The notes: a model not told the origin generated them from the sequence alone. Numbered from the stretch's first letter, positions 10,682-31,413 are shown. The stretch: DNA of 64,000 bases from an uncultured Acidobacteriota bacterium (GCA_963822445.1 CAWGHO010000003.1:320001-384000); one strand, 5' to 3'. A program made the numbers and translations.

Positions 10682-10710
10682 CGAACGTCACTCCGTGAGC
10701 AGAGGCGATT

Positions 10711-10753: not shown

Positions 10754-10761
10754 GTGCAAGG

Positions 10762-11022: not shown

Positions 11023-11037
11023 GAGTATCATCGAGGC

Positions 11038-11190: not shown

Positions 11191-11259
11191 GCCCGGGCTC
11201 GCCCCGGGCCGCCTGTTGTCGTGCTTACCACGGTCACCCCCTTGGTGGTGGTGGCTCGA

Positions 11260-11814: not shown

Positions 11815-11822
11815 GAGTCTCC

Positions 11823-12971: not shown

Positions 12972-12978
12972 GAACGAC

Positions 12979-13056
12979 AGTATCGAGGCTAAATGTCCCG
13001 ATGTCAACAGCGAGTTGACATTTGTACTTGACGGCGAGCGGAACCGGACCCATATT
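12979..13056. promoter_or_regulatory. back-to-back sigma70 promoters with palindromic operator
   Basis: Minus strand: TTGACA (13007-13002)-N17-GATACT (12984-12979). Plus strand: TTGACG (13028-13033)-N17-CATATT (13051-13056). Palindrome ATGTCAAC-N5-GTTGACAT at 13001-13021. Confidence 0.65.
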
Positions 13057-13062
13057 GAGGGT

Positions 13063-13938: not shown

Positions 13939-13963
13939 GGTTCGTTGTCACGGGAGGCAAGTC

Positions 13964-14203
13964 ATGATGGTGGTACACGGTACGTTGGGTCCCTTCGGAG
14001 AAATCGTGAAGGAATATGGTGATGCTCTTCTAACGGGCGAAAGCGCGGACCTGCTGATATCCGAAGAGAACGGTGTCGTCATGGTTCTCCCGGCAGTAAC
14101 GAATCGAGCAGGGAATGCCTGCACGTTTAGGGGAGACGAGTCTAGACGCGAAATTCACGAGCGGCTGCAGGCTTTCATCGGCGAAGCAAAACAGGATGCT
14201 TAG
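13964..14203 (+). CDS. hypothetical passenger protein
   Basis: SD GGAGG before ATG 13964; ends just inside the right TIR. Confidence 0.4.
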   Translation: MMVVHGTLGPFGEIVKEYGDALLTGESADLLISEENGVVMVLPAVTNRAGNACTFRGDESRREIHERLQAFIGEAKQDA

Positions 14204-14229
14204 ATGTAACATCAAACTGACCCACTACC

Positions 14230-15061
14230 TTTTGATCCGGCCGCGGGGCGCCGCCGCGCGTTGTTCGTCTTGATGGCGGCGGCGTGATCGCCGACGTAAC
14301 ACGCCGCGGCCGCGTATTCGACGGGCATCAGGTAGTTGTAAAGACTCTGCTCGATGAACAGGCGATTGCCGGTCGGTCGCGGAACCGCCATCGCCCGCGA
14401 CAGAAAGAGATGCGAGATCGCGAATTGCCGCTCCGTCTGGTAGTGCATCGCGATGCGGAAGAGCGGTACGGCATGATCCGGACAGTACGGCCACGCCGTC
14501 AGATACGCCTGCAGCACCTCCGGCCATGGCCGCCCGATCCGCTCCCCGAGCTGCGCGATCTGGAGGTTTCCGGGTCGCGGGCGCGCGCGCCGTCATTACA
14601 CGGAATAGTGCGAATGCCCGGAAGCAAGGCCTCGGACGTCGCGGCGGGGCAGTGGATGTGCTCGTGCAGCACTCCAATTACTTCCAGGGGTGCGCGTCGC
14701 GCACGAGCTGCCTGCGCAGATACGAATAGTTGCCGTAGAGCACTTCGACGTTGTACGAGTCGGAAGTCAGATGCGGCAGCGCCAACCCGTCCATGGCAAG
14801 AGGTAGCCGGCGCGCCCCCGCGCCAGAGCGAGCGCCTCGCTGCGGTTGTGTGCGAAGTCGACCGATGGCCGCTCGACGAGCTCGCCCGGGACATCGTGCA
14901 GAAATCGCCGGATCACTTCCTGCGTGCCGTCGGTCGAGCCGGTGTCGACGATGAGCCACGCATTGATCAGCGGCTGCGCGGATCCCAGACAGCGCCGGAT
15001 CACGTGCGCCTCGCTCTTGACGTTCATTCACCAGACAGATCGACTGGCCCTGATCGTTCAC
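14230..15061 (-). pseudogene. 5' part of decayed GT2-TPR glycosyltransferase
   Basis: Fragments in several frames: SICLV / MNVKSEAHVIRRCL...IVDTGSTDGT...DFAHNRSEAL, then GVLHEHI, then TPR-like LQAYLTAW...PLFRIAMHY...RLFIEQSLY. Multiple frameshifts and deletions. Confidence 0.75.
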
Positions 15062-15097
15062 GGGAAGGAAGTTGGTACCCCGGTCGGCTCGACCGGT

Positions 15098-15138
15098 TGG
15101 TGCGCATACGGGATTCGAACCCGTGTTACCGCCGTGAG
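15098..15138 (-). repeat. att site: 3' fragment of tRNA-Glu (distal copy, 1-nt deletion)
   Basis: TGGT-GCGCATACGGGATTCGAACCCGTGTTACCGCCGTGAG matches 31338-31379 except for one missing A. Confidence 0.9.
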
Positions 15139-15533: not shown

Positions 15534-18230
15534 ATGAGGTTACGACAGCACGCCCAAGAGATCTTCGATGCTTCCAAGCGTGCCCGGCGCGCACATGCCG
15601 GCATCAAGGTCGCTGGAACGCGACTCATCGTGTGCATTACCGTTCTGCTATTGCTCCGGTTCTTGGCGTTCACGCCGAATCATGAGCAGGTGTCGGGCAT
15701 CCTGGCTACCTATGCACTCGTGGTCATTTTTCTCGTGGTGGCCTTTGAGGAAGTCATTGACCAGCGGCGATTCCGGCTCGTCGCGACCGTCTTGGACGTT
15801 TTCGCTATCTCACTTGTGATCAAGCTGACAGGCGGTCTCGAAACGTCATGGTTCCTCCTGTACGTGTTCCCGATCATGTCTGTCGCGCGTTACCTCGGTG
15901 TCGGCTGGAGCGTCGTCGTCGCGCTCGTCGCCGCAGCGGCATATGGGGGAGCCTCGCTTCCACTGTATTCGTCCACGGAGATCGGTACGTTCTCCCTGCG
16001 CTCGGTCATGCTAGTGATGGTCGCCTTCACGGCTGCCAGACTCGCCCGGACGCGATATCGCGAGGAAGCGACCTTTGCGGAAATGTTGCAGGATGCCGGC
16101 CAGCCAATTGTGACCGATATCGAGTTCGATCGCGCTCTGGCGCGGCTTCTCCAACTCGCGATCCGAGTTACAAAGTCCGGTTTCAGCGGTGTTGTGCTGC
16201 TGGACACTGGTCATCCAAAGATTCACGCCGAAGGACGGCTCAACTTTCGCCAGAACCATCTCGAGGAGGTCAAGAAACTGTTGGCCGCTCACTATCAGAA
16301 GGCAATCGAAACGAGACGCGCCGTTTCTCTGGCAAAGAGCGGGATCGGGGCATTGTTCAGCGGCTTGCGGTCGGAAAGGACGACGGGATGGACGGGGAGG
16401 CTCGTGCCACTGTCAATCGGCGGCCCTCCTTTTGCGGTCCTCGGCGTCTTCTCGCGGCGCACGATCCACTATCGGCCCGACGACATCCTGAAACTGAGTC
16501 GCATGGCCTCGGCCATGGCCATTCTCATGCAGAACGCGGCAGTGTCGCGGCCTCTCGATGCTAGGGCCGCGGCAATCCAGCGGCTGCGAGAGGAAAACGA
16601 GGCCCGGCTCCGCATGCTGTACGAGATCGGCGACATCTTGAAGGAGGAGGTCGGTCTGAGCGACGTCTTCAGGAGAATCGTAAAGATCGTTTCGGAACGA
16701 CTGCAATCCGAGGAAGCCTCGCTGTTCTTGTGGGACGAGCATGAAGAGCAGCTATTCAAGAAATCCGTGGCCGGTCCCGATGAGGTGACGACCAGAAAGC
16801 TCTCCGCCATCGAGGTGTCATATGCGAGCGGCGAAAGTCTCACGGGAGAGGTTTTTGCGACGCGTCGCGAGAAATTGATCGACAAGGTTCTTGCGAACGT
16901 CAGTCATGTCGAGGACTACGCGATCGCGTTGCCGTCGCGCTGCATCAAGCACTATCTCGCCGTGCCTCTCGTCATCGGCAACGAAATTCTCGGTGTGATT
17001 CGCGTTCTCAACCGGAAATCGGCGACGTACGCGCCTGAGCCGGAGGCGGCGACGATCCCGGACGACGGATTCGACGAGGCGGATCTCCATCTTCTGAGGA
17101 TGACTGCGCGCCTGATCGCGGTCGCGATCAGGAGTGCGGGATTCGTCGAGCAGAAGCGTTACTTCGAGAATCTCGTCTATCAGTCGCCCGATCCGATCAT
17201 CGTTCTCGACGAGAACAAGAAGATCAAGAACTTCAATCGAGCGTGCACTGCTCTCTGGAATGTGGAAGAGAAAGAGGTCCGCGGGCAGTCGGCCGAACAA
17301 TTCTACAAATCGCCGGATCACGCCCGGCAGATCGGAAAGGCCCTCGGAAAAGCCAAAGATCACATGATTCGCGACTACAAGACATGGATTCGAGACCCGA
17401 GCGGAAAGATCGTTCCGATTCGGTTGTCCGCGACCGAGTTTCGCTCGAAGAGCGGTCGATTCACAGGCAGCGTCGGCATATTCAACGATGCACGGGGCGA
17501 GCACGAGGACAGGCTAAAGGCGCTCGCGAATCTGTCGCGGGACGCAAGCCACGACATCAAGAACGACGTCCGGGCGATTACCTACTATTTCGAGGACCTC
17601 GAACGGCTGTCGCGGACTTCCGCCGAACTGCTCCCGATCTATCAGGCAATTCGCGCGGCGGCGGAGGCGGCGCTGAGCAAACTGCAAAGTCTACTCATGA
17701 CGGCGGCCCCCCCTCCCGCGCGAGCTGCCTTGATCCCGATCGTGGCCGAACTGGCCGAGTGGCTAGCGTCCATGCAGGAGAGGATGGAGGCGGCGAACAT
17801 CCTATTGACGTTCACGCGGCCGGATGACGATGCAATTGTGAGCGCCGACAGGGAACAGTTGAGACACGTGCTGTCCAATCTGCTCGGCAATTCCGTGGAC
17901 GCGATCCTGGAAGCCAAACGGGAACTGGACAATCGCCGGATCCACGTCACGATCGAGCTCGCCGATGAGCAGGCCATTCTGCAATGGCGTGACAACGGTA
18001 TCGGGATGCCGGAAGGAGCGGCTCGAGACGCATTCACGGCATTTTATACTACTAAAGAAAATGGTAATGGGCTTGGACTCTCGATCAGCAGGAATATCGT
18101 GAAGAGTCACGGCGGCGACATTGGCATCGAGTCGACGACCGGCAAGGGAACCTGCATCACCATCACCCTTCCGTTGATCGTCGCTTCCACGTCTCTGGCC
18201 TCCACCGCAACAGGCAATGCCCATGTTTGA
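15534..18230 (+). CDS. membrane sensor histidine kinase (multi-TM, GAF, GAF, PAS, HisKA, HATPase)
   Basis: About six TM helices (LDVFAISLVIKLTGG...FLLYVFPI); GAFs (LVPLSIGG; HYLAVPLVIGNEILGVIRVLNRK); PAS (SPDPIIVLD...FNRA); H-box ASHDIKN, N-box NLLGNSVDA, DNGIGM, FYTTK, GNGLGL. Confidence 0.9.
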   Translation: MRLRQHAQEIFDASKRARRAHAGIKVAGTRLIVCITVLLLLRFLAFTPNHEQVSGILATYALVVIFLVVAFEEVIDQRRFRLVATVLDVFAISLVIKLTGGLETSWFLLYVFPIMSVARYLGVGWSVVVALVAAAAYGGASLPLYSSTEIGTFSLRSVMLVMVAFTAARLARTRYREEATFAEMLQDAGQPIVTDIEFDRALARLLQLAIRVTKSGFSGVVLLDTGHPKIHAEGRLNFRQNHLEEVKKLLAAHYQKAIETRRAVSLAKSGIGALFSGLRSERTTGWTGRLVPLSIGGPPFAVLGVFSRRTIHYRPDDILKLSRMASAMAILMQNAAVSRPLDARAAAIQRLREENEARLRMLYEIGDILKEEVGLSDVFRRIVKIVSERLQSEEASLFLWDEHEEQLFKKSVAGPDEVTTRKLSAIEVSYASGESLTGEVFATRREKLIDKVLANVSHVEDYAIALPSRCIKHYLAVPLVIGNEILGVIRVLNRKSATYAPEPEAATIPDDGFDEADLHLLRMTARLIAVAIRSAGFVEQKRYFENLVYQSPDPIIVLDENKKIKNFNRACTALWNVEEKEVRGQSAEQFYKSPDHARQIGKALGKAKDHMIRDYKTWIRDPSGKIVPIRLSATEFRSKSGRFTGSVGIFNDARGEHEDRLKALANLSRDASHDIKNDVRAITYYFEDLERLSRTSAELLPIYQAIRAAAEAALSKLQSLLMTAAPPPARAALIPIVAELAEWLASMQERMEAANILLTFTRPDDDAIVSADREQLRHVLSNLLGNSVDAILEAKRELDNRRIHVTIELADEQAILQWRDNGIGMPEGAARDAFTAFYTTKENGNGLGLSISRNIVKSHGGDIGIESTTGKGTCITITLPLIVASTSLASTATGNAHV

Positions 18231-18732
18231 GGAGATGCCTATGATCACACAGTCTTTGTTGGCTGGATCGGTTTCGCCGACGATTCACGCATGGCTTGGT
18301 AAGGGAGAGCCGGTCTCGCTCGCGGATGCGGCTGCCGGACACGAAGCGGTATTGCGAAAAATCAGAGAGCTAGCGCTCAAGGTACTCGTAGTGGACGACG
18401 ATCGTACTGTTCGGCAGGCATTATGCCACCGGCTCGAGAACGACTACGGCGCAGAGGTGGTTGACGTCCCCTCCGGCGATGCTGCGCTGCATGCCGATCT
18501 CGCTCAGTACGACGTCCTGCTCGTGGATGTGGTGATGCCAGGAATGAGCGGCGTCGTCACATGCGAGAAGATGATCGAGCTTCGGATCAAGGGAGTAATC
18601 GTGTTAATGTCGACCAACTCGGAAAACCAGGATGCGGCGACTGCGCACGATGTCGCCTTCTATGACAAGAACGATTCGGTCACGGCGCTTGAGCCGATCC
18701 TACTCGGTGTGGCAGGGCGCCGGGCTTCATGA
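18217..18732 (+). CDS. stand-alone response regulator receiver protein
   Basis: KVLVVDDD...DVLLVDVVMPGMSG...LMS...YDK; no output domain. Start is uncertain. Confidence 0.8.
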   Translation: MPMFEEMPMITQSLLAGSVSPTIHAWLGKGEPVSLADAAAGHEAVLRKIRELALKVLVVDDDRTVRQALCHRLENDYGAEVVDVPSGDAALHADLAQYDVLLVDVVMPGMSGVVTCEKMIELRIKGVIVLMSTNSENQDAATAHDVAFYDKNDSVTALEPILLGVAGRRAS

Positions 18733-21504
18733 GTCGGGAAGTTTTGCTGGTCGACGACGAGAAGCGCTTCCGCATGGCGCTGATGCAGAAATTGCCGGAG
18801 TACACGTTCCTCGAAGCGATCTCGCCTGCGGATGGAAGGAAAGCGATTGACGCGAATCTCCAAATTCACGTCGTGCTTCTAGATCTCGACTACAAGGGAG
18901 TCGGTGACGCGACTTCCGTCATCGATCACGTCAAGGAACGCGCTGGCGATTATCGCTTCATCGTCCTCACCGCACACCAAGAGATGCTCGGCGCCGATGC
19001 CGCCGGCGAGCATGCCGTCTTTCGCTATCTGTCGAAGGACGAGCGAGTCGAGACCATTAAGTTCGCGCTCGATCAGGCATTCAAAGACCTGGAACGACAG
19101 CATCTCGCCGCGAAGTTGAGTTACCACCTCGACATCCAGGAGCGGATCGGGAGGAATGAACAACTCACCGACGTCCTGAACCTGATCTGCGAGGGAGTGC
19201 AGAGAATCGTCGGCGCATACACGTGCCACATCCGTATCTACGACTTTGCCCGGGGCGACTTTCCACTCGGAGGTTTCGCCGGCCCGAAGACATTGCGCGA
19301 GGTGCTCGATCAGCCGAAGGTGAGCGGCACGCTTTTTTCCGGAAGAGCCATCTCCACGGGATTCGAGGAGGTCATCGATGACCTTCAGACGATGCCGGAG
19401 TTTAGCGAATTCGCGAAAAAATCTCGTGAATCGCGCCGTCTGATCCCCGAACCCGAACAGAGGTACTGGCAGACCGTCCGCTCGTGTTACCTCGTTCCGA
19501 TCCGTACCGGAGTGCTCGGCAGGCGCGTGGACGCGGTTCTTAATGTGAGCAGCGAAAAACGCGCCTTCTTCACCGAGGAAAAACAAGCCCTGGTGAGGGA
19601 GTTCGTCACGCAGGCGTCTCTCGCCCTCGCCAAGCGCTGGCTCGAGCAGAAGCGCTCGGAGATCCACGAAGATCACAGCGAGATCGGCAAGATGTTTAAC
19701 GAGATGAGCGAGCTGAACAGTCTCGGCCAAATCTTCGACGTGGTGACGTCCGGCATCGCGAAACTCATCAGCGCCGAAGTCGTATCTATTTTTCTCTTCG
19801 ACGAGGAAGACGGTGTATTGAAGAACTTCGCCAGCTACAGTGGAAGCGACTATGTAAGCGACGATGATCTGGTCAAGGAGGTATACAAACCCGGCGAGAG
19901 CTTCACGGGCACCGTCTATGCCAAAGAAGATACGATCATGCGCCCCGACCCGCGCGAGGAAAAGCAGCTCAAGCCGGAAGAGGATCCTCTGCACGAATAC
20001 GAGATGCTCAAGGTGCACTTGAAGGGGATTCCGTGCGGGAAGCTGGAGCACTACGTCGGTGTGCCGCTGAGGGTTCGGGGGAAAACGCGCGGAGTGCTGC
20101 GCGCGGTGAACAAGAAGTCGAAGTATTACGACACGAAGAGGGCCCGCGGCGGAGATCCGGCGGTCCTCCTAGAGCGCGGCTTCAGCGTCGACTGTCTCAA
20201 TGCATTAACGCTCACCGCAGGCCACTTGGCAGTGACCATCCGTAATGCCGAGCTGCTCGAAAAAGAGGGACGAGCGTGTCCGGCAGGTCGAGACGCTCGT
20301 CGCGGTCGGCAAGATCGTTAACCAGACATTAGAGATGAATGATGTCCTCGCGCGCACCATCGAACAGATGGCGACGGTGATGCGGGCGCGAATCGGCATG
20401 CTCTTCCTCAAGGACGATCACGATTCCGACCGGGTCGTATTGAAGGCATGTTACGGAATGCCAGTTATCAATGCGTCATACAAGAAGGGCGAAGGCACTA
20501 CAGGGCGCTGCTATGAGAGCAACAGTCCGATCTTGATCTCCGTGGGTAGCCTGAACGACGGAAAATACAACGACCAAATCCGCGAGCACTTGCAGTCCGC
20601 GGACGGCACACCCGCGGAGATCGAGTCGTTGATGGTGGTGCCGGTCAATGTCAAGGGCATGGCCTTCGGCGTCATGAAGGTCGTGAACCGACAGGAAGGG
20701 CATGGCCCTTTCACGGTCGAAGACCTTGAGCTCTTCCAGATGTTCGCCGAATTGGTGGCGGTGACCATCGACAATGCGCAGATCTACAAGGCGGCAAACG
20801 AAAATGCGGTGCTTTCTCTGATGGTCTCCGTCGCCGCGCACGAGATCGGCAATACGTCAGGCGTCATTCCCGCCAATGTCGCCGGCATCCGCGATGCGCT
20901 CGGTACGCCGCCGCCGGAAATTGAGAACATGCTCGCCACCATTGAGGCGTCGGCCCTGGAAGCGACCGACTTCGCTAAGGAAATCTCCGGGTTCTCTCCT
21001 ACCCGTCCAGATCAGAAAGAAGATCTCGACCTAAATGAACTCGTCGACAGTATGGTGACGACATTTAAATTCGATCTGCAACGCCACAAGCAGTCGCCGC
21101 AGAGTAGGCTGGAGATCATCCCGTCGGCCGAGACGCTCATGTGCCGGATTTTTCGGCGGCCGTTCGAACAGACGATCCGGAACATCATCATCAACGCATT
21201 CCAGGCTCTCGGCGATAAGGACGACGGCTACGTGCGGGTCTCGATGGCTTCCGAGGAGCGCGAAGACGGCAGGTTCGCGGCAATCTCGGTCGAGGACAAC
21301 GGCTGCGGCATTGACCCCAAAGACACTTCCAGGATCTTCGACGGCGGCTTCACGAGAAAACCGCGCGGGAGCGGAGTGGGACTGTGGCTCGCACAGAAAC
21401 ACTTGGCACTCCTGAACGGAACGATTGCCGTCGACAGCGAACTGAATCGAGGATCGAAATTCACTGTCCGCCTTCCTCTGATCGCGGGAGGGCAGGGGGG
21501 GTGA
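18729..21504 (+). CDS. REC-GAF-GAF-GAF histidine kinase, split by a +1 frameshift at about 20260
   Basis: ORFs 18729-20321 and 20245-21504 join if one A is removed from the A5 run at 20260-20264 (NAELLEKRDERVRQVETL), collinear with paralog 25192-27945. H-box AAHEIGN, NIIINA, DNGCGI, GSGVGL. Confidence 0.85.
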
Positions 21505-22745
21505 TCCAACGTGCCCGCGTATTGATCATCGACGACCGGCTCGGCGTGCGCCAGACGCTTCGCAATGTCCTGTTCGGCCTCGATTGCATCTTCACCGAGG
21601 CGGTGAGCGGCGACAGCGCGCTCGCGATTCTGAGCAGTCAGAAATTCGACATTACGTTTCTCGATCTGTCGCTTCCGGACATTTCCGGTCTCGAGGTTCT
21701 GAAGCAGGGCAGCGAGAACGCCGACGCCATGGGAAAGGTGATCGTGCTGACCGGACTCCCAGAGGAATCTACGCGCGCGCATGCGATGGCGCTCGGGGCG
21801 TTCGCCTATCTGTCGAAAGATCCGATCGATCGAACCGCGATCCGGCAGACGTTCACGAAAGCGGTTAAGCCCGCTCGACCGTCGACGACACAGTCCCTCG
21901 CGCTGCCCGCTACTCCCGAGAAAGCCCCGTCCAAACGGAGAGCGCGTAGGATCTCACGCCCTCAGACGACAACGACACCGCAACGTCGCAAGCTCCTCGT
22001 GTTGGACGATAAGGCGTATTGGCTCGAAACGATTGAGCGTTTGTTACAGGATGAGTTCGAGGTCGTCGGCGCAGCGACCCCGAACGAGGCCTACGCGAAG
22101 ATGAAAAAGGGAAATTTTGCGCTGGTGGTGCTCGATATGAAACTGCCGGGGGACGAATCCGGTCTCGATGTCCTGAGCCGCATGCGCCGCGCGCGGCACG
22201 ATCTCCGCGCGATCATTCTGACCGAATACCCCGATTGGAAAGAGGCCGTCGAGAGCGGCAGGCGGGGCGCAATCGACTATGTGTCGAAGGCCGATCCGAC
22301 GATGCTGAAGAGCGTCGTGACGCGCATTCTAGGCGAGCGCCCGCCCACCCGCGTTTTTCTCTCCTATGACCGCCGCGACAAGGCGCGGGTACTCCAACTC
22401 TACCAACGTCTGATGACGCGCGGTTTCATTCCGTGGATCGACGTGAAGAGCCTCATCCCCGGACAGCGGTACGTGCTGCAGATCGAGGATGCGATCAAGG
22501 ATTGCGACTACTTCGTATTCTGCGTTTCCCATCACTCGGTCGAGTCAAGGGACGGGCTAATCCAGCAGGAACTGCGCGTCGCGCTCGATCTCGAGAGGCA
22601 GAAGCGTCGCGGTTCGAGTTTCCTGATTCCAGTCCGGCTTGAGCCCTGCGAGGATCATCCCGATCTGGAGGATTTTCAAGCCGTCGATCTCTATCATCGG
22701 GAAGGCTTCGCGAGTTTGATGAAGGCGCTTTCGTCGAAGCGTTAA
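21501..22745 (+). CDS. REC-REC-TIR protein
   Basis: Two intact receiver domains (IIDD..FLD..T..K; VLDD..VLD..T..K), then TIR_2 RVFLSYDRRD...PWIDVKSLIPG...AIKDCDYFVFCVS..SV...QQE...LIPVRLE. GTG start overlaps the upstream TGA. Confidence 0.9.
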   Translation: MIQRARVLIIDDRLGVRQTLRNVLFGLDCIFTEAVSGDSALAILSSQKFDITFLDLSLPDISGLEVLKQGSENADAMGKVIVLTGLPEESTRAHAMALGAFAYLSKDPIDRTAIRQTFTKAVKPARPSTTQSLALPATPEKAPSKRRARRISRPQTTTTPQRRKLLVLDDKAYWLETIERLLQDEFEVVGAATPNEAYAKMKKGNFALVVLDMKLPGDESGLDVLSRMRRARHDLRAIILTEYPDWKEAVESGRRGAIDYVSKADPTMLKSVVTRILGERPPTRVFLSYDRRDKARVLQLYQRLMTRGFIPWIDVKSLIPGQRYVLQIEDAIKDCDYFVFCVSHHSVESRDGLIQQELRVALDLERQKRRGSSFLIPVRLEPCEDHPDLEDFQAVDLYHREGFASLMKALSSKR

Positions 22746-22762
22746 ACGAATAGGTGAGACCA

Positions 22763-23635
22763 ATGACGGATCGTCGAAGAATTCTCATCGTCGATGACAG
22801 CGAATCGTGGCTGCAGACCATACGACTGATTCTTGGCGCACAATACGATCTCACATGTGTGACCAGCGCCGCCGAAGCTCAGGCTCTGATTGCGACGGAG
22901 AGATTCAACCTCGCCATCCTCGATCAGAGGCTTCCCGGGGGGCCTTCCGGTGTCGAGCTGTTTATGGTGCTGCGTGCGGTCCAGCCTGATCTGCGCGCCA
23001 TCATCCTGACCGCGCACGCCGAGGTCGGCGACGCAGTCCACAGCATAAAAAGCGGCCTGTACGACTACATTTCGAAGAGCGATGGAGCAGATCTGCGGAC
23101 AGAGCTACGCTCGCGCGTCGAACAAGCATTGCAGACCGCCCCGCGTGACGTAGACGTTGCGACTCTGCTGCAATGCGACGAAGGTGACCTCCTCGAGTTC
23201 AAGTCATCCGCACGATGGGACATGCGCGCGGCGCGCGCCAGCCATGACATCGAGACGATCATCGTGAAGGCCGTGGCCGGCTTCCTCAATTCCGACCGCG
23301 GTGGCGTGCTTCTGATCGGCGTTGATGACAATCACAACGCGATAGGTCTCGAACATGATTACCGCACGTTCAAAAAGTCGGGCCGCGATAGTTTCGCCAA
23401 TTTCCTGCGCACCCTCTTGCTCGACGCGTGCGAGAAAGACATCAGCCGGCTGATTGAGATCGACTTCCACGACATCTCCGGCAAAGACATTTGCCGTGTC
23501 CGCATCGGTCCATCTCCTCGCCCAGTCTTCGTCAAAGAGGGCCCGACCGAGGTTTTCTACCTGCGAACCGGAAACTCGACCCGGCCACTGAAGCCAAGGG
23601 AGCTCTTGGAGTTCAGTAAAGTGCGATGGAAGTAG
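22763..23635 (+). CDS. REC-AlbA_2 (Schlafen-like) protein
   Basis: Receiver (IVDD..ILD..LT..SK) followed by EGDLLEFKSS.RWD...KAVAGFLNS..GGVLLIGVDD...FYLRTGNST, the AlbA_2/Schlafen pattern. Confidence 0.88.
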   Translation: MTDRRRILIVDDSESWLQTIRLILGAQYDLTCVTSAAEAQALIATERFNLAILDQRLPGGPSGVELFMVLRAVQPDLRAIILTAHAEVGDAVHSIKSGLYDYISKSDGADLRTELRSRVEQALQTAPRDVDVATLLQCDEGDLLEFKSSARWDMRAARASHDIETIIVKAVAGFLNSDRGGVLLIGVDDNHNAIGLEHDYRTFKKSGRDSFANFLRTLLLDACEKDISRLIEIDFHDISGKDICRVRIGPSPRPVFVKEGPTEVFYLRTGNSTRPLKPRELLEFSKVRWK

Positions 23636-23971
23636 CGTGTGCGAATTACGCCCTCGCTCCCGGCTCAGCGCGAATGATCTCGTCTTCTAATGCGGCGCTT
23701 CGACAAGATCACACCCACAAGCTCCAAATACGCATAGATCGTGTCTTTCACGCCTTGCGAATTGCGCGTAGACATCTTGGATCGCGAAACGCTCCGTCGT
23801 GGTGGTCGTTCGTGGAGGCGGAACTTTACGCTCCATCCGGCAAAGAATTGCAGCGGGAGCCGGAGGCCCGCTGCCTTAACGAGCTCTGTGCCTTGCCGCA
23901 CGCGCAAGCTCTTCAAAGCAAACTTTAGCGCTTGAAGGTTTTTCGCCCGCGCTCAGTAGCGCGTTGTGGTG

Positions 23972-25195
23972 CTACCCGGCGCGCGGCACTTTTGGTGGCG
24001 ACAACGCGTCGAGGAGTGCAGCAAACCCGTTCCTTTTGAAAATATCGACGTGTTGGAAGCGATGGAGCGACGGTTCCCGTGGACAGTCTTCGAGCCGTGC
24101 CGGGATGAAGAATGTTGCACCATCCGCCTTCTCATCCTGACGGCGTAAAGCGAGCTTCACTTCGCGACGCATCACGCCCTCACGTCCCACGGAATTTCTC
24201 GAGACGAAGAAAACGAAGTAATGCGAATCTTTGATCGCTCTCTCGATCTCGAGTTCCCACTCGCTTCCCACGCGAAGCGATTTTTCGTCCATCCATGGAT
24301 AAAACCCTATCTTCGTCAATCTGCTGTGCAGCCGGGAGACAGTGGCGAAGTCCGCTCGCGCGTAACAGAGGAACACCTTCGTGGCAGGGCGCTGATCATT
24401 CAGGATGCTGTTAATCATCGCTGGAAGGGAAGTCAGCCGGTTCTTGAGGATGTGTTTGAGAGCACCGCGCCGCGCGCTTTCGAACACGGCGTCGGGGTCG
24501 TTCTCGTCCGAGATCATGATCGCCCGCAAATCGGGAACGCGCTTCCGCAGGCGCATCAGCAGGTCCAACCCAGAGACATGGCCAGCGAGGTTCACATCGA
24601 CGATGGCGAGGGCTGGGGGGTGCTGAGTGAACTTTCTGAACGCGTCATCGGCATCCGTCGCCGCGATCGGCTCGAATTCTTCGCTGAGGATGTCGAGCAT
24701 TTGCTCAAGCGAGGACGGATCGCTGTCGACGAGGAGTAAGGCGGGACGCGACTCATTTGGCACGAAACATCGCTTCTGTCCGCGTGATGCCCGCACGCTG
24801 GTCGGAGCAACGGTAGCAGGTGCAATGCCGATCGCGTCCTGAAACGCACGGCGGATGCCGCTCCATGACATCGAGCCCTTCGACAAATACCGAAACGCGC
24901 CGAGTTCATCGGCCTCCTTCGCGGAGTCCAGGTCGGGATAGCCCGTCAGAACGATAACTTTTCCAACCGCCAAATGCCGTCTGCGGGCTTCTTTGAGAAT
25001 GTCGAGTCCGGACATGTCACGCAATTTCAAATCGAGAACGATGACATCAAAGACGTTGGACTCGATCAACTCCAGTGCTCTCGAGCCGTCGTCGGCTTCG
25101 GTGAATACGCAGTCGAATCCCGTTAGCGTACTCCGCAGCATGTTGCGGATGTCGTCGCGATCGTCCACGAGCAATACTCGTGAGCGCCGCGTCAC
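23972..25195 (-). CDS. REC-REC-TIR protein (paralog of 21501-22745)
   Basis: RVLLVDD..VLD..LT..SK; second receiver LLVDSD..IVD..IS..K; TIR KVFLCYARAD...PWMDEKSLRVG...FFVSRNSV...RRE...FIPARLE. GTG at 25195 overlaps the upstream TGA. Confidence 0.9.
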   Translation of the reverse strand: MTRRSRVLLVDDRDDIRNMLRSTLTGFDCVFTEADDGSRALELIESNVFDVIVLDLKLRDMSGLDILKEARRRHLAVGKVIVLTGYPDLDSAKEADELGAFRYLSKGSMSWSGIRRAFQDAIGIAPATVAPTSVRASRGQKRCFVPNESRPALLLVDSDPSSLEQMLDILSEEFEPIAATDADDAFRKFTQHPPALAIVDVNLAGHVSGLDLLMRLRKRVPDLRAIMISDENDPDAVFESARRGALKHILKNRLTSLPAMINSILNDQRPATKVFLCYARADFATVSRLHSRLTKIGFYPWMDEKSLRVGSEWELEIERAIKDSHYFVFFVSRNSVGREGVMRREVKLALRRQDEKADGATFFIPARLEDCPREPSLHRFQHVDIFKRNGFAALLDALSPPKVPRAG

Positions 25196-27945
25196 CGCGT
25201 TGCTCCACGTTCGGCGTCTGGGAGTGTGATGACGAACCGGGAACCGCACTCTGCTCCACCGTAGACCTCGATGTTTCCGCCGAGCGTCTGCAGCTGAGCC
25301 CGCGCCAGCCACAGTCCCAACCCATTTCCCCTCGGTTTCGTGGTGAAGTCTGCGTCGAAGATTCGCCGCAGGTGCTCAGGTTTGATTCCGATTCCGTTGT
25401 CCTCGACAGATACCTCAGCCATTCCATGACTCCCTACGGCAGTGCTGATGCGAACGACGCCGGGCCTCGTGCCATCCAAAGCCTGAAAGGCATTGAGAAC
25501 GACATTGCGGATGATCTGTTTGAAGGGCGCCGGGTAAATGCCTCGAACGATCGGGCGCTCGCTCAGGGCAAGCTCGAGCCTTCCGTCATAGCGATCGAGT
25601 GTCGGAGTGAGCTCGCGGATCGTCTCCGTAATCACTTCATTGAGCTCGGATGGTTCCTTGTCGCGCACTCGTCCGGAAGAAAACCCGGCGATCCCGTTCG
25701 CAAAATCGGTTGCCTGCTCCGCGACGTTCTCGAGCCGCGAAAGCATTTGCACCACGTGCATGTTAGGGTCGCGGAGCTCCGCGCGGATCGCGGCGACTGT
25801 TACCGGGATGATGCCGATGGTGTTGTTGATCTCGTGCGCGACCGCCGCGACCATCGTCGATAGAGCTGCATTTCGTTCGGCTATCGCGAGACGCTCGTTC
25901 TGGTGCTCGTAAATCTGCGCGTTGTCGATGGCCACGGCTACGTGATCGGCGAACGTGCTGAAAAGCGCGAGATCGCTGTCCGCTTGCCCGCTCTGCACGC
26001 CGGTTCTCTTGATCACTTTCATCACGCCTATGACGCGGTGTCTGGCAACGACCGGCACGATCATCAGGGAAAACATTTCCGCGGAGAGACCATGTTTGGT
26101 TCGGAGGAAATCAAGCACGATCTTGTCGTCCTTGCTGTTCACGACCTCCGCGGCCGGCAGCAGGAGGGGATTTTGGCTCTCAGCGACCGTGCCAGTGAGG
26201 GCCTCTCCAATGCGATAAGACGCGCGCTCCACCAGCGACCGCGGGATGCCGAACGACTCCTTCAATACAAGTCGGTCGCCGTCGAGCAGGAAGAGTAAAC
26301 AGATATCCGCCTGCATCACTTCGGCGGCTTTTCCGATCGTGAGCTTCAGCAGTTCATCGATGTCAGTTTCGGAGTTGATGATGTGCGCGACTTCGCTGAG
26401 AGTTCGGGTCTGCTCGACCTGCCGGTTTTTGTCGTGCAGCAACTCTGAATTCTGAATGGCAATGCCAAGATGATTGGCCGCTATCTCCAGAACGACGAGG
26501 TCATCGCGTACGAAGCCGCGCTCCAGGAGCGCTTGGCGGTCTGTCATCGCGGTGGCACGGTCGTAATAAATCGACTTCTTGTTAATCGCGCGCAACACTC
26601 CGCGAACGTGGCCGCCGATGCGGATCGGCACTCCGAGATAGTGATCGACTCTGGCCGATGGAATGTGCCTCATCGAGACATGACGGCCTTCGTGATCGAA
26701 ACGCGTATCGTCATGCGCCCGTGAGATCGGAGTATGAGTCAATTCGGGCAGTAGCACCGACTTCGCGCTAGTGAATACATAGCCGGTCAGACTCTGGCCG
26801 GGTGCATATCCTTCTTCGAGTCCGGTAATGGTTTCGCCGCTCAGATCGACGACCTTCCGGAGAACTCCGTCTTCAAGGTCATATAGGAACACCGAGACGA
26901 CTTCGGCACCGATGATTCCCGCTATGCGGCGCGCCACGATCTCGCACAAGCTCGTGACGTCGCTGAGCTCCAGCCCATTGCTGATCGAAGCGAGCATCCA
27001 CGCGAGCGCGTCGTAGCGAGACTGAAGTTCCTCGCGCCTGTGGTGGAGCCAATGCTTTGAAATCGCCAGCGCCGCCTGATCGACGAATTCGCTGATCAGT
27101 GCGCGCCGTTCTTCGCTGAAGTAATTCGCGAGCTCGCTGCTGACATTCAGCGCGGCATCGACGCTCTGGCCGTAGAGACCAGTCCGGATCGGAACGATGT
27201 ACGCCGCACGCGCCGTTTCGAAATAGGCCCCCCCGCTGTCCATCGCTGGGTCGCGCATCTGTCTGAACTCGGGTAGTGCTTGCAGGTCGTCGAACAGCTC
27301 TGCTGAACCTGATTCCACGACTCTGCCGGAGAACAGCTCACCTTTCTTGCGCGGGGGTTCGAATGCGGAGCGCAGCCGGGCATCGCCGGCGTATCCGCGG
27401 AGCTGGTAATCGCCCGCCCGCGTGTCGTAGACGCGAATGTGACACGTGTAAGCACCGGCAGTGGTCCGTACAGCTTCGCAGATCTGGTCGAGAGTCCGGG
27501 TGAGTTCGTAGCCTTCATTGATGCCGCGCTGAATGTCGAGCAGCATTCGCATTTTGCGGTCGAGGGCCTGACGCTCCAGATCGGCGAACGCCTGATCGAT
27601 GGAGAATCGCAGCGACTCGGCGCCGTTGTCGGACTTCGAGAGGTACCTGAAAACGTCATAGTGATGCGCACTCTCCGCGCTAAGCGACGTCGAATGTGCC
27701 GTGAGAATGATGACCCGGTAGTTATCCGAGCGCGGACGGATGTGATCCAAGACTTCGGTTCCCGAACCAGGACCGAGAAACAAGTCAAGAATGATCACCT
27801 TGATCTGAGGATCGGAGTCGATGATCTCTATCGCTTCAGTCACCGATGTGGCGTTGACAAAGCGATAGTTGCGTTTTCGGAACATTCGAATGACGGTCTC
27901 GCGATACGCCCGATCGTCCTCAATGAAAAGGACATCTTTGCTCAT
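25192..27945 (-). CDS. REC-GAF-GAF-GAF histidine kinase (intact paralog of 18729-21504)
   Basis: MSKDVLFIEDD receiver; shared GAYTCHIRVYD, IRTGLYG..VDAALNVSSE, HYLGVPIR...RGVLRAINKKS; H-box VAHEINN, NVVLNA, DNGIGI, FTTKPRGNGLGL. Confidence 0.9.
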   Translation of the reverse strand: MSKDVLFIEDDRAYRETVIRMFRKRNYRFVNATSVTEAIEIIDSDPQIKVIILDLFLGPGSGTEVLDHIRPRSDNYRVIILTAHSTSLSAESAHHYDVFRYLSKSDNGAESLRFSIDQAFADLERQALDRKMRMLLDIQRGINEGYELTRTLDQICEAVRTTAGAYTCHIRVYDTRAGDYQLRGYAGDARLRSAFEPPRKKGELFSGRVVESGSAELFDDLQALPEFRQMRDPAMDSGGAYFETARAAYIVPIRTGLYGQSVDAALNVSSELANYFSEERRALISEFVDQAALAISKHWLHHRREELQSRYDALAWMLASISNGLELSDVTSLCEIVARRIAGIIGAEVVSVFLYDLEDGVLRKVVDLSGETITGLEEGYAPGQSLTGYVFTSAKSVLLPELTHTPISRAHDDTRFDHEGRHVSMRHIPSARVDHYLGVPIRIGGHVRGVLRAINKKSIYYDRATAMTDRQALLERGFVRDDLVVLEIAANHLGIAIQNSELLHDKNRQVEQTRTLSEVAHIINSETDIDELLKLTIGKAAEVMQADICLLFLLDGDRLVLKESFGIPRSLVERASYRIGEALTGTVAESQNPLLLPAAEVVNSKDDKIVLDFLRTKHGLSAEMFSLMIVPVVARHRVIGVMKVIKRTGVQSGQADSDLALFSTFADHVAVAIDNAQIYEHQNERLAIAERNAALSTMVAAVAHEINNTIGIIPVTVAAIRAELRDPNMHVVQMLSRLENVAEQATDFANGIAGFSSGRVRDKEPSELNEVITETIRELTPTLDRYDGRLELALSERPIVRGIYPAPFKQIIRNVVLNAFQALDGTRPGVVRISTAVGSHGMAEVSVEDNGIGIKPEHLRRIFDADFTTKPRGNGLGLWLARAQLQTLGGNIEVYGGAECGSRFVITLPDAERGATR

Positions 27946-28697
27946 TCGAGCTCCGAGGATGTCGGGCGCGGCAGCTCGATGGTGAAATACGCACCGGCTC
28001 TCTTGCCCGATCCAACTGAGATGTTGCCGCTGTGCGCTTCGACGATGCGCCGCGCCGCAAACAGCCGCAGGCCGATGGTCCATTGATAGGTCGTAAAAAA
28101 CAGCTTGAAACATTTCTCCTCGACTGCCTCGAACATCCCGCAGCCATTGTCTCGCCAGAACAACAGGACGTCACGCGCTGTAACATGCGACGGGATATGG
28201 ATTGCCGCTCGTGCCCCCGCGAGGGCGATGGCATATTTCGAGTTCGCCAGTGGAATTTCCAACACGAACGTCATCTGATCCGGGTCCGCGACGACGAGTA
28301 TCTCGTCATCGGGCAGGACGATTGAGACGCCGATCCCTTCGATGCCCAAGGCGAATCGCGACAGCATCGATCGCATCGACACAATTTCGCGCTGGGGCGG
28401 CTCGGGATTCAGTGCGAGCTGCCGTTGTTGCAACCGCCCGATAGCTTTGCGCGTTGCGGCGCGAATCGCCTCGCACACCTTTTTGATTTCATCGCTCGGG
28501 GGGCCGTTCAGTTCCAGAGTCTCGACCCATCCGCGAATGATCCCGATGGTATGTTTCAAGTCATGCGCGAAAAGAGAAGCAAACCCGGACACCATTCTCA
28601 GAGCCAGCGCATCCGCCTCAGCGCGCACCTTCGCCGGCCGCAAGCGGACGAGGCGTCTCTGTAGAGCAACGAAACTTAGGAACTGCCCTCGTATCAT
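27942..28697 (-). pseudogene. truncated, degenerate histidine kinase core (remnant of the first kinase of operon B)
   Basis: FAHDLKH H-box, ADPDQM, LFWRDNGCGM and FFTT are present, but the G2 box is eroded (WTIGLRL) and the sensor domains are missing next to the att site. Start is uncertain. Confidence 0.6.
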
Positions 28698-28959
28698 GTC
28701 GATGCGGAAGTATGATAGAGCCCTCAGCTTTGAGAAGGCAGAAGACTTCACAGCGCTATTCCTCTCGACGCGTTCCCCAGCGCGCGGGCTCTTCCAAGTC
28801 GGTCGCCAATATTGGCGGATCAACGCGAGAGCTATCTCGATCCCGCGTCGGCAACGAGACATGACCTGGCGATGCTCGCGCACTCGCTACGGAAGAGCGG
28901 AGCAAGTTGCATGTTGCGCTCCGAATACTTTTCGGTTCTCTCCTCCGATGGGGTTTCTT

Positions 28960-29001
28960 TGGTAGCGCATACGGGATTCGAACCCGTGTTACCGCCGTGA
29001 G
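28960..29001 (-). repeat. att site: 3' fragment of tRNA-Glu (proximal copy)
   Basis: 42-bp identity to 31338-31379, ending in the anticodon loop. Confidence 0.93.
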
Positions 29002-29148
29002 CGGGGCAGCAGAAGAGAGCTACATCTCTCTGATTCCACGTACTTAGCGCAGTGTGATCGATTTCGTGCGTCCACGGAGATACGCCGTTTTAGGCGCCCG
29101 GGTGGCCAAGTATGGAAGTGGTTTTGAGAGTGGCGAAATCGCCGCTTT

Positions 29149-29787
29149 TCAGAGGAGAGATGGCGATGATTCGACTTTTGTTGGTGATGGCGGTGAGTTG
29201 GTTTGTTCGGCTTCACTCGCTGCCTCGAAGAGGTCAATTGCGAGACTGCTCGTTCGGTACGTAATGCGGCCGAGGACGAAGGGCTCGACGCTCGCCGCCC
29301 GGAGTTTCCAGTCGCGACGTAGGTAGACGAAGAGCCGGTGCGTGAGCAGCTCGTGCACGATGAGGTCCGTTCGAAGCACGAAGTTGCGCGGAGTCGCCTG
29401 TGACGGTGGAACGAGGGCCGCCGTCACGTAGAGATGTGCGACGCCTGCTCCCGAATGCCCGGCACCTGGCTCGATGACGATCTCGACGTCACCCACTTCG
29501 GTGCACCACACCGTGCCGTCCCGATTGGAAGCGGTCAGGTGATCGGCGACGTAACGTGCGATGTCGCGCCGCAGGCCGGCGGAGAGCGCTTCGCTGGTGC
29601 GAGGCACCGGTTTGCCGAAGCCGATCTCGAACTGCGCGGCAGGGAGACGCAGCTCCGCCTCGACGTGCCCGCGACCGACGTCGAGAAAGATCGTGCTGTC
29701 GGGGAGAGGATGGCTGAATACCTCGGGCGCTGCGAACAGCATCGAAGCAATCAGCAGCATGGCAGACCCCAGACGCATCGCCTTCAC
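29149..29787 (-). CDS. HupE/UreJ-like protein N-terminal domain, probably truncated
   Basis: Signal peptide, then HPLPDSTIFLDV...ELRLP...DLIVHELLTHR...LRRDW. The C-terminal membrane domain is absent and the ORF ends at the island arm. Confidence 0.55.
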   Translation of the reverse strand: MKAMRLGSAMLLIASMLFAAPEVFSHPLPDSTIFLDVGRGHVEAELRLPAAQFEIGFGKPVPRTSEALSAGLRRDIARYVADHLTASNRDGTVWCTEVGDVEIVIEPGAGHSGAGVAHLYVTAALVPPSQATPRNFVLRTDLIVHELLTHRLFVYLRRDWKLRAASVEPFVLGRITYRTSSLAIDLFEAASEAEQTNSPPSPTKVESSPSLL

Positions 29788-31232
29788 TCTGAGTGCCGGA
29801 CCGTGCGGCGTCGCCCGGCCGGTTCGTCGTCGTGGATCGTCAGCATGGTCGAAGCCGGACTGCCGAGCGCCGCGCCACCGGCAGCACTGCTCAGCGTGAA
29901 GACGACGGTCTCCGGGCCTTCAACCAACTGGTCGTCGAGGATCGGAATCTGAAAGCTCTTGCTGCCGCTCTCACCATCGGCCCAGGTCAGCACACCGCTC
30001 ACTGATTCGAGATCACTCCCTGCGGTTGCCGTCCCTCCGGCCACTGCGTATGCGACGCTCACCGCTCCGGTCGTGCCGCCGATGCGCTGAATCTGAATCG
30101 TCGCGACGCCGGCACTCTCGGCGACCTCGTAGCTCGTCTCCGCGAACGTGATCGTTCCAGGCTCGAGCACGAGCGTGCCGTCACCTCCGTAGTCGAGGGT
30201 CTGATCGCGCCAGATCGCGTGATAGTGAACCTGGTCGGGGATCGCCGCGGGGCCCTGCACGACGATCTCCATCCACGCACGGGGCCCGTCGATGCGGATG
30301 TACGAGCCTTGCGTCGCGAGAGTGGCGTTGCTTCCCGCCCAGCCGATATATGTGTTCTCGAGTGCGCTACTGCTCGTGTAAGCGGCGAGAAAATCCGAAG
30401 CGACGCCGCTCGGCGTGTCATTCACCCAGGCCTCCATCGCGTCGACGACGAGTGCCTGCTGCGTCGCCGACAGTGTCGAGACCTTCAGGCCGGATGGCGT
30501 CGGGAAAAGATTGTCGTCGCCTGGACCGAGCAGAACGTCGCCGAATGTACCGCTGAGCTTCGCCGCGGCGCGCTGCGTCGCATCGAGGCCGGCGATCATC
30601 GCGACCATCACGTCCACCTTCGGTTTGAGCGGCTCGTAGCTCTGACCGTTGAGCGTGAATCTCTGCGGATTCATGCCGGTGAAGTACGGCGTCGGGCTCT
30701 CGACGGAGCCGTGATAGTAGAAATTGAGCGCGTAGTGGTGTCCGCCGAGCTGGAGGATCCACTCCCCGGTCGACGAGGGCGTGCCGATGAAGGCGATGAA
30801 GTAGATCCCGCTGTTGTACGTGGAGCTCTGGCCGAGGGAGCCTAAAAAGTCGTCGGCCATACGGATGCCGTGGAAAGTGCCGTAGCCCGCACTGGAGAGC
30901 GCCGCCTGGGCGACGGCGAGCGCGGCCTCGAGCTGCGTCGCAGACAACGTGCTGAATCGCAGACCGTTGTTGCAGGCAGCAGCGCATGGAAGGTTCGACC
31001 ATTTGCTCGATGCCGTGGCGCGGTTGAAGGCGTATTGAACGCCGTTCCTCTGTGTCGCCGAGAGTGTCGCGAGGAAACTCTCGGCAGCGCTGCAGACCGC
31101 TTTGGCCGGAGCGCTGCTGCCCGCGGTGCAGTTGCTCGTCTGTGCGGTAACCGTCGTGGCGCTCAGCAGGAGCGCGAGTGCAAAAGTGCATGCGATCAAG
31201 ACCTTCGATGGCTGATTCGGCATGGTCGCCAT
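29784..31232 (-). CDS. secreted DUF3500 protein with C-terminal Calx-beta domain
   Basis: Signal peptide; FLATLSATQR, WSNLP, FIGTPS..GEWILQLGGHHYALN, YIRIDGPRAWME, HYHAIWRD...DYG; Calx-beta TATAGSD...GVLTWADGE...ILDD..VEGPET. Confidence 0.8.
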   Translation of the reverse strand: MATMPNQPSKVLIACTFALALLLSATTVTAQTSNCTAGSSAPAKAVCSAAESFLATLSATQRNGVQYAFNRATASSKWSNLPCAAACNNGLRFSTLSATQLEAALAVAQAALSSAGYGTFHGIRMADDFLGSLGQSSTYNSGIYFIAFIGTPSSTGEWILQLGGHHYALNFYYHGSVESPTPYFTGMNPQRFTLNGQSYEPLKPKVDVMVAMIAGLDATQRAAAKLSGTFGDVLLGPGDDNLFPTPSGLKVSTLSATQQALVVDAMEAWVNDTPSGVASDFLAAYTSSSALENTYIGWAGSNATLATQGSYIRIDGPRAWMEIVVQGPAAIPDQVHYHAIWRDQTLDYGGDGTLVLEPGTITFAETSYEVAESAGVATIQIQRIGGTTGAVSVAYAVAGGTATAGSDLESVSGVLTWADGESGSKSFQIPILDDQLVEGPETVVFTLSSAAGGAALGSPASTMLTIHDDEPAGRRRTVRHSE

Positions 31233-31337
31233 TCTGGTCGTTCAAGAGGCGTTTCGCGGCAACCGACCTGCGACAATCCAGGAAATCGAGGCGATTCACC
31301 GCATCGTCGCGGCGGACGTGGAGCGGGGGGAAGGGTT

Positions 31338-31413
31338 TGGTAGCGCATACGGGATTCGAACCCGTGTTACCGCCGTGAGAGGGCGGCGTCCTGGACCCCT
31401 AGACGAATGCGCC
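31338..31413 (-). tRNA. tRNA-Glu (anticodon CTC)
   Basis: Reverse complement GGCGCATTCGTCTAGGGGTCCAGGACGCCGCCCTCTCACGGCGGTAACACGGGTTCGAATCCCGTATGCGCTACCA: 76 nt, cloverleaf, encoded CCA. Confidence 0.97.

Follow-up and report, generated by a model that had tools for sequence, protein, structure and literature searches.

Two kinase–receiver operons with TIR and Schlafen/AlbA_2 outputs at a tRNA-Glu gene of an uncultured Acidobacteriota bacterium: a candidate Detocs-like conflict system

The closest described counterpart of the locus presented here is the defence system Detocs. In the main text of its report, Detocs consists of the kinase DtcA, the stand-alone receiver DtcB, and DtcC, a receiver fused to an effector that is mostly a PNP ATP nucleosidase (10.1101/2023.01.24.525353). 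According to the same text, mutations of the kinase His, the receiver Asp or the PNP domain abolish defence, and the DtcB Asp mutant is toxic; approximately 20% of the operons carry other effectors, of which the main text names endonuclease and transmembrane domains (10.1101/2023.01.24.525353). Our locus is a 13.9-kb island within a stretch of 64,000 nt, hereafter the window, from an uncultured Acidobacteriota bacterium (GCA_963822445.1, CAWGHO010000003.1:320001-384000). It carries two operons, A and B, in which histidine kinases (HKs) accompany receiver (REC) domains fused to TIR and Schlafen/AlbA_2 domains.

Three further bodies of work bear on the comparison. Ambrosia joins restriction-modification to a two-component system, and in the text available both the kinase and the receiver protein are required for phage defence (10.1101/2025.09.30.679545). 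Bacterial Schlafens, in the main text describing them, fall into 55 architectures (pSlfn1-55) in which the Schlafen domain is often fused to helix-turn-helix (HTH) modules; some of them have been shown to defend by tRNA cleavage, and the nuclease-dead mutant of that study is E15A/D20A (PMC13056530). Two surveys of conflict systems in multicellular prokaryotes, in the parts at hand, place receivers among the effector modules, without kinases.

Operon content, effectors and receivers

Operon A comprises five genes and operon B three (Table 1). Pfam analysis of nine island open reading frames (ORFs), with the hybrid kinase of operon A counted as two, recovered every domain that an earlier interpretation made from the DNA alone (hereafter, the sequence-only reading) had listed for the two operons. 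It also bore out the statement that nothing besides TIR and Schlafen/AlbA_2 serves as output: all output domains were TIR_2 and SLFN_AlbA_2, and at E ≤ 0.01 the ORFs matched no family of DNA-binding, cyclase or chemotaxis proteins. The junctions had been described as mostly overlapping or translationally coupled, and this was what we found. A1 and A2 overlap by 14 nt, an ATGA is shared by A2/A3 and by B1/B2, and a GTGA is shared by A3/A4 and by B2/B3; A4 and A5 are separated by a gap of 8–17 nt. These start–stop overlaps place the true starts of A4, B2 and B3 at 21501, 27945 and 25195, respectively. The kinase His and receiver Asp residues, likewise noted there, are present: all four kinases have an H-box, and D, T and K positions are invariant in the family alignments described below.

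The TIR_2 domains of the two REC-REC-TIR proteins scored 94.0 and 86.3 bits against a Pfam cut-off of 28. Across 29 aligned REC-REC-TIR proteins the TIR glutamate E357 (numbering of P0005, the A4 product) was invariant, as were D55, T84, K106, D212 and K263, and both receivers retain the acceptor Asp and the Lys. The best PADLOC matches of the TIR were short-Argonaute TIR-APAZ models (1.6e-15 and 7.6e-17), with ThsB models matching the island TIRs weakly (E 4e-5 and weaker). The best PDB sequence matches were Cat1 and SPARTA TIR-APAZ (E approximately 0.004–0.007). E357 aligned opposite residue 77 of the TIR-APAZ chains, Glu77, which we take to be the catalytic glutamate. Judged by these matches, the TIR appears closest to the NAD+-depleting TIRs of SPARTA and Cat1. 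The AlphaFold model of REC-REC-TIR (predicted local distance difference test, pLDDT, 81.5; disordered linker at residues 125–159) was closest to PleD (Foldseek E 3.7e-11) in a match list dominated by receivers. As a separate observation, the 6.0-Mb source genome is rich in TIR domains, with 17 TIR_2 matches; several cluster at C2:2.16-2.23 Mb, among them a pair of identical 450-aa frames.

The SLFN_AlbA_2 domain of A5 scored 60.6 bits (Pfam cut-off 25.3) and keeps the E-x4-E...D acidic triad, whose residues we take to be the counterparts of the mammalian Schlafen catalytic residues. Positions E143, E148, D191 and D192 were invariant in all ten REC-AlbA_2 orthologues and nearly so in 139 relatives; D57, T86 and K108 of the receiver were invariant in the ten orthologues. 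Over a GGVLLIGVDD segment (GGxLxIGVDD), the PDB sequences of SLFN11 (E 0.0016) and of the rodent Schlafen N-domain 5yd0 (E 0.059) matched weakly. The relatives came from a HMMER search against 1.84 billion representatives, which yielded 1346 proteins at E ≤ 1e-30; the best 150 were taken, 11 longer than 700 residues were dropped, and 139 were scanned. Among these best 139 of the 1346, AlbA_2 was detected in all 139, a receiver in 27 and TIR_2 in three, and the other partners were nSTAND2, AAA_16, AbiJ_NTD3, BrxL_ATPase, GmrSD_N, EAD4, CHAT, TRADD-like_N and bPH_2. These partners are effector modules of conflict systems, not transcription factors.

The stand-alone receiver, encoded by A2, showed the pattern of acidic pair, Asp, Thr or Ser, and Lys in 17 of 18 loci. 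In a maximum-likelihood tree of 94 receiver domains, five monophyletic classes were recovered, which fell on two sides (95/81): the stand-alone receiver and the first receiver of the TIR protein (TIR-REC1) on one, and the receivers of the hybrid kinase, of the second TIR position (TIR-REC2) and of the Schlafen protein on the other. TIR-REC2 and the Schlafen receiver were joined at 100/99. Each cassette type, long or short, has two kinds of kinase, HD[IL]K (A1, B1) and HEINN (A3, B2). This arrangement suggests two phosphotransfer channels that may meet at REC-REC-TIR, and the stand-alone receiver may compete with TIR-REC1. A2 is a candidate phosphate sink.

The N-terminal part of A1 contains approximately five hydrophobic segments at residues 25–170, candidate transmembrane (TM) segments, with a weak DUF4118 hint below the cut-off. 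HATPase_c scored 73–92 bits in A1, the second part of A3, and B2; the partial match in B1 reached 32.7 bits. Pfam reported TPR in none of the island kinases; their sensors are GAF, PAS and hydrophobic segments.

Two descriptions given by the sequence-only reading had to be revised. The hybrid kinase of operon A was taken to be a single open gene; it is split near 20262–20270, where alignment with three orthologous loci revealed a single extra base in CTCGAAAAAGAGG. Either the mutation is genuine and inactivating, or the assembly is wrong in the A-run. Unless the assembly is at fault, operon A, whose kinase reads frameshifted, could be functionally impaired or rely on B2. The source genome consists of three contigs, which suggests long reads. 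One soil-metagenome DNA run shares 0.10 of the sampled words of the sequence, and no RNA run was listed as carrying it. Programmed frameshifting at GAAAAAG was rejected, because the downstream frame requires a +1 shift and such heptamers give −1; the three orthologues are unshifted. The other revision concerns B1, which had been called an HK remnant. Two metagenome contigs encode sensor-less kinases of 260 and 282 residues with a full HATPase_c, immediately 5′ of a hybrid kinase and REC-REC-TIR, and B1 is 40% and 34% identical to them, the H, N, G1 and F boxes included. Given these counterparts at the equivalent position, B1 is a recurrent gene type, though its G2 box is degenerate (GLRL, not GLGL).

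Table 1. Features of the island and its borders (positions in the window).
Feature	Position	Strand	Description
A1, membrane sensor kinase	15534..18230	+	GAF-GAF-PAS (GAF_2, two stretches); H-box SHDIKN; HATPase_c
A2, stand-alone receiver	18217..18732	+	REC; conserved DD, D, S, K
A3, hybrid kinase REC-GAF-GAF-GAF-HK	18729..21504	+	H-box AHEIGN; one-base insertion near 20262-20270
A3 as two ORFs	18729-20321; 20245-21504	+	REC-GAF-GAF; GAF-HATPase_c (Pfam)
A4, REC-REC-TIR_2 effector	21501..22745	+	414 aa from GTG at 21501 (P0005); ORF from 21384
A5, REC-SLFN_AlbA_2 effector	22754..23635	+	likely start ATG 22763 behind AGGTGA
B3, second REC-REC-TIR_2	23972..25195	-	ORF 23972-25312; 42% identical to A4
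B2, intact hybrid kinase REC-GAFx3-HK	25192..27945	-	H-box AHEINN; ORF 25192-28113
B1, short sensor-less kinase	27942..28883	-	H-box AHDLKH; partial HATPase_c; start codon uncertain
Proximal att-like repeat	28960..29001		repeats the 3′ 42 nt of tRNA-Glu (31338-31379) exactly
Distal att-like repeat	15102..15138		repeats 37 nt of the tRNA-Glu 3′ part exactly
tRNA-Glu(CTC), integration target	31338..31413	-	3′ part recurs at both island borders

Conservation and mobility of the cassette

We searched for the HK/REC-REC-TIR/REC-AlbA_2 neighbourhood in other genomes, as the sequence-only reading had proposed, and found it conserved. A word-based protein search returned approximately 34 REC-REC-TIR relatives, all from metagenomes or metagenome-assembled genomes. 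A scan of species-representative genomes with a ten-sequence alignment matched 114 stretches, 66 of which encode a relative (tblastn), at 65 distinct loci. The full-length TIR protein was matched at nine of these loci (L017–L025), on which the synteny counts are based; the other 56 (L026–L081) were receiver-only and were used solely as a PADLOC control. The hosts of the nine were Thermoanaerobaculia, Terriglobia, other Acidobacteriota and one Longimicrobiaceae genome. At all nine, the first kinase (HK1), the hybrid kinase, REC-REC-TIR and REC-AlbA_2 follow each other in this order on one strand. None of the window's flanking genes was conserved at these nine loci.

A metagenome scan anchored on the hybrid kinase yielded 43 loci; the 23 strong ones (L082–L104) were analysed, and 20 matching the kinase core only (L105–L124) were left out. 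L104 has the same sequence as L096, and the pair was counted once among the metagenome contigs. REC-REC-TIR came next after the hybrid kinase in every one of the 12 distinct contigs that extend 1.3 kb or more beyond that gene. In nine of the 12, REC-AlbA_2 followed the TIR gene; it was absent despite room in L082, L083 and L089. L082 and L083 are of the short type, like operon B, and L091 has a long and a short cassette in tandem, in both of which the TIR protein is naturally split into REC and REC-TIR genes (5867–7041 and 10823–12110). In L089 (11645–16120), the REC-REC-TIR frame extends by approximately 540 residues without a family match and is followed by ORFs of 419 and 168 aa with sub-threshold STAND/AAA hints, replacing REC-AlbA_2. 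The stand-alone receiver lay between HK1 and the hybrid kinase at 17 of 18 loci examined, L019 being broken there. Among 400 other sampled genomes of the phylum, with four candidates scored per genome, the TIR protein was found in none at E ≤ 1e-40, including none of seven from the same family. The cassette is rare, patchy and mobile rather than lineage-conserved.

The edges of the island hold up: exact copies of sequence from the tRNA-Glu 3′ part were found at both borders (Table 1). As these repeats flank the block, the two operons are the entire content of one repeat-bounded segment. A second segment, of 2.3 kb, lies between the proximal repeat and the tRNA-Glu gene. The GC content of the window was 0.57–0.61 across 8–30 kb versus 0.64–0.69 on both sides. 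PHROGs matched none of ten ORFs around the island.

Signs of insertion were also detected at related loci. In L017, 45 nt of the tRNA-Met 3′ part recur 50 bp beyond the cassette. Genes for tRNA-Pro and tRNA-Ala adjoin the cassette in L019 and L023; a search for a tRNA-derived repeat found none in L023 and a match of only 13 nt (E 0.012) in L019. The L025 cassette is enclosed by 94%-identical direct repeats (3573–4077 and 12183–12687) with stretches of 176 and 300 nt, approximately 500 bp together. The repeated sequence is the 3′ end of a PKD-domain gene, present in duplicate, which looks as though the element had brought a replacement gene end. The GC content at third codon positions was lower in the cassette than in its neighbours in L018, L020, L022 and L025. 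The cassette behaves as a horizontally mobile unit.

Several observations concern the surroundings of the island. The segment at 29005–31336 encodes a DUF3500 and Calx-beta protein (29784–31232, minus strand) and a 212-aa ORF without a family match, and looks like an earlier or later insertion at tRNA-Glu. The low GC content extends to the left (8000–15100), where a gene with HTH_3 and Peptidase_M78 domains (ImmA/IrrE-like; 11823–13148, minus strand), several ORFs without a family match, and a sub-threshold DDE-transposase hint (13015–13938) are located; this region may be another degraded mobile element. Just past the tRNA gene lies a Ser/Thr protein kinase with TPR repeats (32348–34207, minus strand). 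A second dip in the GC profile (0.586–0.611) was found at 52000–56000.

Proposed function, defence context and alternatives

On balance, we consider it somewhat more likely than not that the cassette serves abortive infection or conflict in a Detocs-like manner, gated by phosphorylation and acting through NADase and RNase outputs. The block would then represent two copies of a mobile 'defensive phosphorelay', the long operon A and the short operon B, in tandem at tRNA-Glu. Each would combine an HD[IL]K kinase, with a membrane GAF-PAS sensor in A and sensor-less in B, with a HEINN hybrid kinase controlled by its own receiver and three GAF domains. We infer that a trigger, most likely a phage or another invading element, would cause the kinases to phosphorylate the effector receivers. 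REC-REC-TIR would integrate two receiver channels, and its phosphorylation-driven assembly, as in PleD, would lead to NAD+ cleavage by the TIR, with REC-AlbA_2 activated in parallel as a Schlafen-type RNase. The stand-alone receiver, sister to the first TIR receiver, would drain stray phosphate and prevent self-killing, like DtcB of Detocs. The predicted outcome is that the infected cell arrests growth or dies.

A more specific version, which we put forward tentatively and consider rather unlikely to be right in full, is a dual-key relay. The NADase would be released only when both receivers of REC-REC-TIR are phosphorylated, one by a kinase that reads the membrane and the other by a kinase that reads a cytoplasmic ligand with its three GAF domains. 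A decoy receiver would compete for the first channel, and the Schlafen RNase would respond to the second channel alone, such that the response is graded in two stages: RNA cleavage comes first, and NAD+ collapse follows only a confirmed signal. If true, this would be a new logic for the control of suicide effectors, with a TIR and a Schlafen that would each be the first of their family under receiver control.

The notion of a phosphorylation-gated immune or conflict system was already part of the sequence-only reading. The conserved neighbourhood, the mobility, the TIR glutamate, the AlbA_2 triad and the AlbA_2 partners speak for it, whereas the hotspot argument that accompanied it, namely that tRNA-integrated islands are hotspots of defence genes, was borne out only weakly, because many flanking genes are housekeeping. 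We compared 129 ORFs flanking the cassette at 21 loci (two of 131 were dropped for size) with 129 control ORFs from unrelated receiver-anchored loci at E ≤ 1e-10. The cassette flanks matched 82 PADLOC families versus eight for the control, an enrichment of the kind the earlier interpretation had proposed to look for that is suggestive only, since families and not proteins were counted, the control came from other phyla, and the pair L096/L104 is duplicated. The matches included a type I restriction enzyme, SNF2-type DpdE/ZorD/DrmD, AriA, MADS components and three ThsB-like proteins. In L104 (4090–8426), a TIR_2 protein, a SLOG protein and three paralogous ThsB-like proteins (PADLOC ThsB E 1e-42 to 3e-53) lie beside the cassette and, by these matches, form what appears to be a Thoeris-like cluster. 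At L017 (480–2926), genes for a KaiC-like double ATPase and, after it, a HisKA-HATPase_c kinase are located just upstream of the cassette.

Besides the limits of that enrichment, a number of results weigh against a role in defence or against parts of the proposed mechanism. Approximately half of the 20 proteins flanking the cassette in L017, L018, L020, L022 and L023 were plainly housekeeping by Pfam (DnaE, pyruvate dehydrogenase E1 and E3, aconitase, amylase, an aminotransferase, a PALP enzyme and cytochrome c); other flanks at these five loci were PIN, patatin, a DUF4365 nuclease-like protein and a KaiC-like ATPase with a kinase. PADLOC gave no system-level match on the cassette and none for REC-AlbA_2, and the kinases had only single hits at chance level (best E 0.0027–0.0061). 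GAF, PAS and multi-TM sensors are typical of metabolic or environmental sensing, unlike known phage sensors. The hybrid kinase is frameshifted in operon A and also broken in L021. The kinase-to-receiver assignment is taken from the receiver tree alone. The REC-AlbA_2 model reached a pLDDT of 81.2, and its structure search list was filled by receiver matches. Of five PF00589 integrase matches genome-wide, none lies on the island part of contig 3 (serine recombinases were not searched), and no full-length REC-REC-TIR was found in plasmid or phage collections.

Some of these points fit a different function, namely a dormancy or death switch responding to stress other than phage. In such a switch the kinases would read a metabolic, redox or density signal, and the TIR and Schlafen outputs would reduce NAD+ and cleave RNA so that growth stops; alternatively, the outputs would serve kin or cell–cell conflict among social soil bacteria. 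The GAF, PAS and multi-TM sensors, the housekeeping half of the flanks, the 17 TIR_2 matches in the host genome, and the receivers named among effector modules in the portions at hand of the conflict-system surveys are all compatible with it. A switch of this kind would be harder to reconcile with a cassette that is rare, patchy and mobile and not lineage-conserved, with an AlbA_2 subfamily whose partners are immune-type modules, and with an operon logic that mirrors, as far as its text describes it, the proven defence system Detocs; we regard it as possible, with the chances clearly against it. Improbable in our view is a non-lethal signalling circuit, in which the TIR would make a cyclic ADP-ribose (cADPR)-like messenger, AlbA_2 would be a nucleic-acid-binding regulatory output, and the circuit would end in gene regulation. 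Thoeris-type TIRs do generate signals, and the cassette of L104 stands beside SLOG and ThsB-like genes that could read them. The frequent HTH fusions in the Schlafen main text (PMC13056530) point the same way. The AlbA_2 nuclease triad is invariant, however, the TIR is apparently closest to NAD+-depleting enzymes, and Pfam detected no SLOG, SIR2, Macro, STING or SAVED in the nine island ORFs, the 22 related cassettes having been compared with the window's proteins by tblastn and a few of their genes by Pfam.

The least probable explanation we considered is that the locus is a decaying relic in the source genome, with nothing functional left. The frameshifted hybrid kinase of operon A, the degenerate ATP lid of B1 with its GLRL G2 box and partial HATPase_c match, the lost integrase and the weak DDE-transposase-like remnant noted above would agree with decay. 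Against it, all other genes are open with key residues intact, B2 and B3 included, and an extra base in an A-run is at a typical assembly error site in a three-contig genome that suggests long reads. We therefore retain the phosphorylation-gated conflict system as the preferred interpretation.

Comparison with described systems

The sequence-only reading knew of no described system with this architecture. Our literature search agrees to the extent that no description of a REC-TIR architecture, or of a Schlafen domain with two-component proteins and TIR, was found, nor a TIR variant in the Detocs literature as far as its text was at hand. The operon logic, however, is already known from Detocs, in which a kinase, a stand-alone receiver and a receiver-effector with swappable effectors are combined. 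Both effector families of the cassette are likewise established in immunity. In the text describing Detocs, as in the cassette, one operon encodes a sensor kinase, a receiver-only protein and a receiver whose fusion partner is a cell-killing enzyme and not a DNA-binding domain; the effector slot is modular, and the stand-alone receiver is proposed to be a phosphate buffer. This three-gene core is present in operon A and the related long cassettes; operon B is without the stand-alone receiver. Detocs has one TPR-sensor kinase and one effector, whereas the cassette has two kinases with GAF, PAS and TM sensors, one of them a hybrid, a double-receiver TIR and a second effector. The N-terminal TPR of the Detocs kinase was not detected in the cassette by Pfam, and neither PNP nor an alternative effector named in the Detocs main text was found in place of TIR_2 and SLFN_AlbA_2. 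PADLOC gave no Dtc-named match on the cassette, although it is uncertain whether the release holds Detocs models.

The other likenesses are to single components. SPARTA TIR-APAZ, Cat1 and Thoeris ThsB share the TIR_2 domain with its conserved Glu, and TIR-APAZ and Cat1 were the best sequence matches. These proteins are activated by Argonaute–guide binding, cyclic tetra-adenylate (cA4) or phage cues, whereas the cassette TIR is fused to two receivers behind kinases. Pfam found no ThsA, Argonaute or CARF partner in the nine island ORFs, and SIR2, SLOG and Macro, which mark the ThsA partner of Thoeris, were likewise absent from the island. PleD, the top structural match, resembles REC-REC-TIR in having tandem receivers before a catalytic domain that needs pairing or oligomerisation. 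Its output is GGDEF and not TIR, and its second receiver is an adaptor, whereas both cassette receivers keep the acceptor Asp.

The prokaryotic Schlafens, as described in their main text, share with A5 an AlbA_2/Schlafen domain with an acidic motif fused to a variable regulatory domain. In the cassette, AlbA_2 is C-terminal to a receiver and is encoded in a kinase operon. The main text of PMC13056530 uses none of the terms receiver, response regulator and two-component; its Supplementary Table 2, with the 55 architectures, may include a REC fusion. Ambrosia differs in that, in the available text, its receiver protein carries a winged HTH domain and is proposed to act transcriptionally, with a methylase and an HNH nuclease as the effectors of the system.

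If the preferred interpretation is right, TIR NADases and Schlafen nucleases, families common to bacterial and animal or plant immunity, could be switched on by phosphorylation in addition to ligand binding, filament seeding and guide-RNA binding. How such effectors stay silent would be directly testable in this compact, self-contained unit of eight kilobases, which offers clear point-mutant predictions. Relative to Detocs, the cassette differs in its sensors, in having a second kinase and two effectors, and in its double receiver. The cassette would thus extend the Detocs principle to a two-kinase relay with a decoy and two effectors with different targets, in soil Acidobacteriota, in which almost no defence system has been tested.

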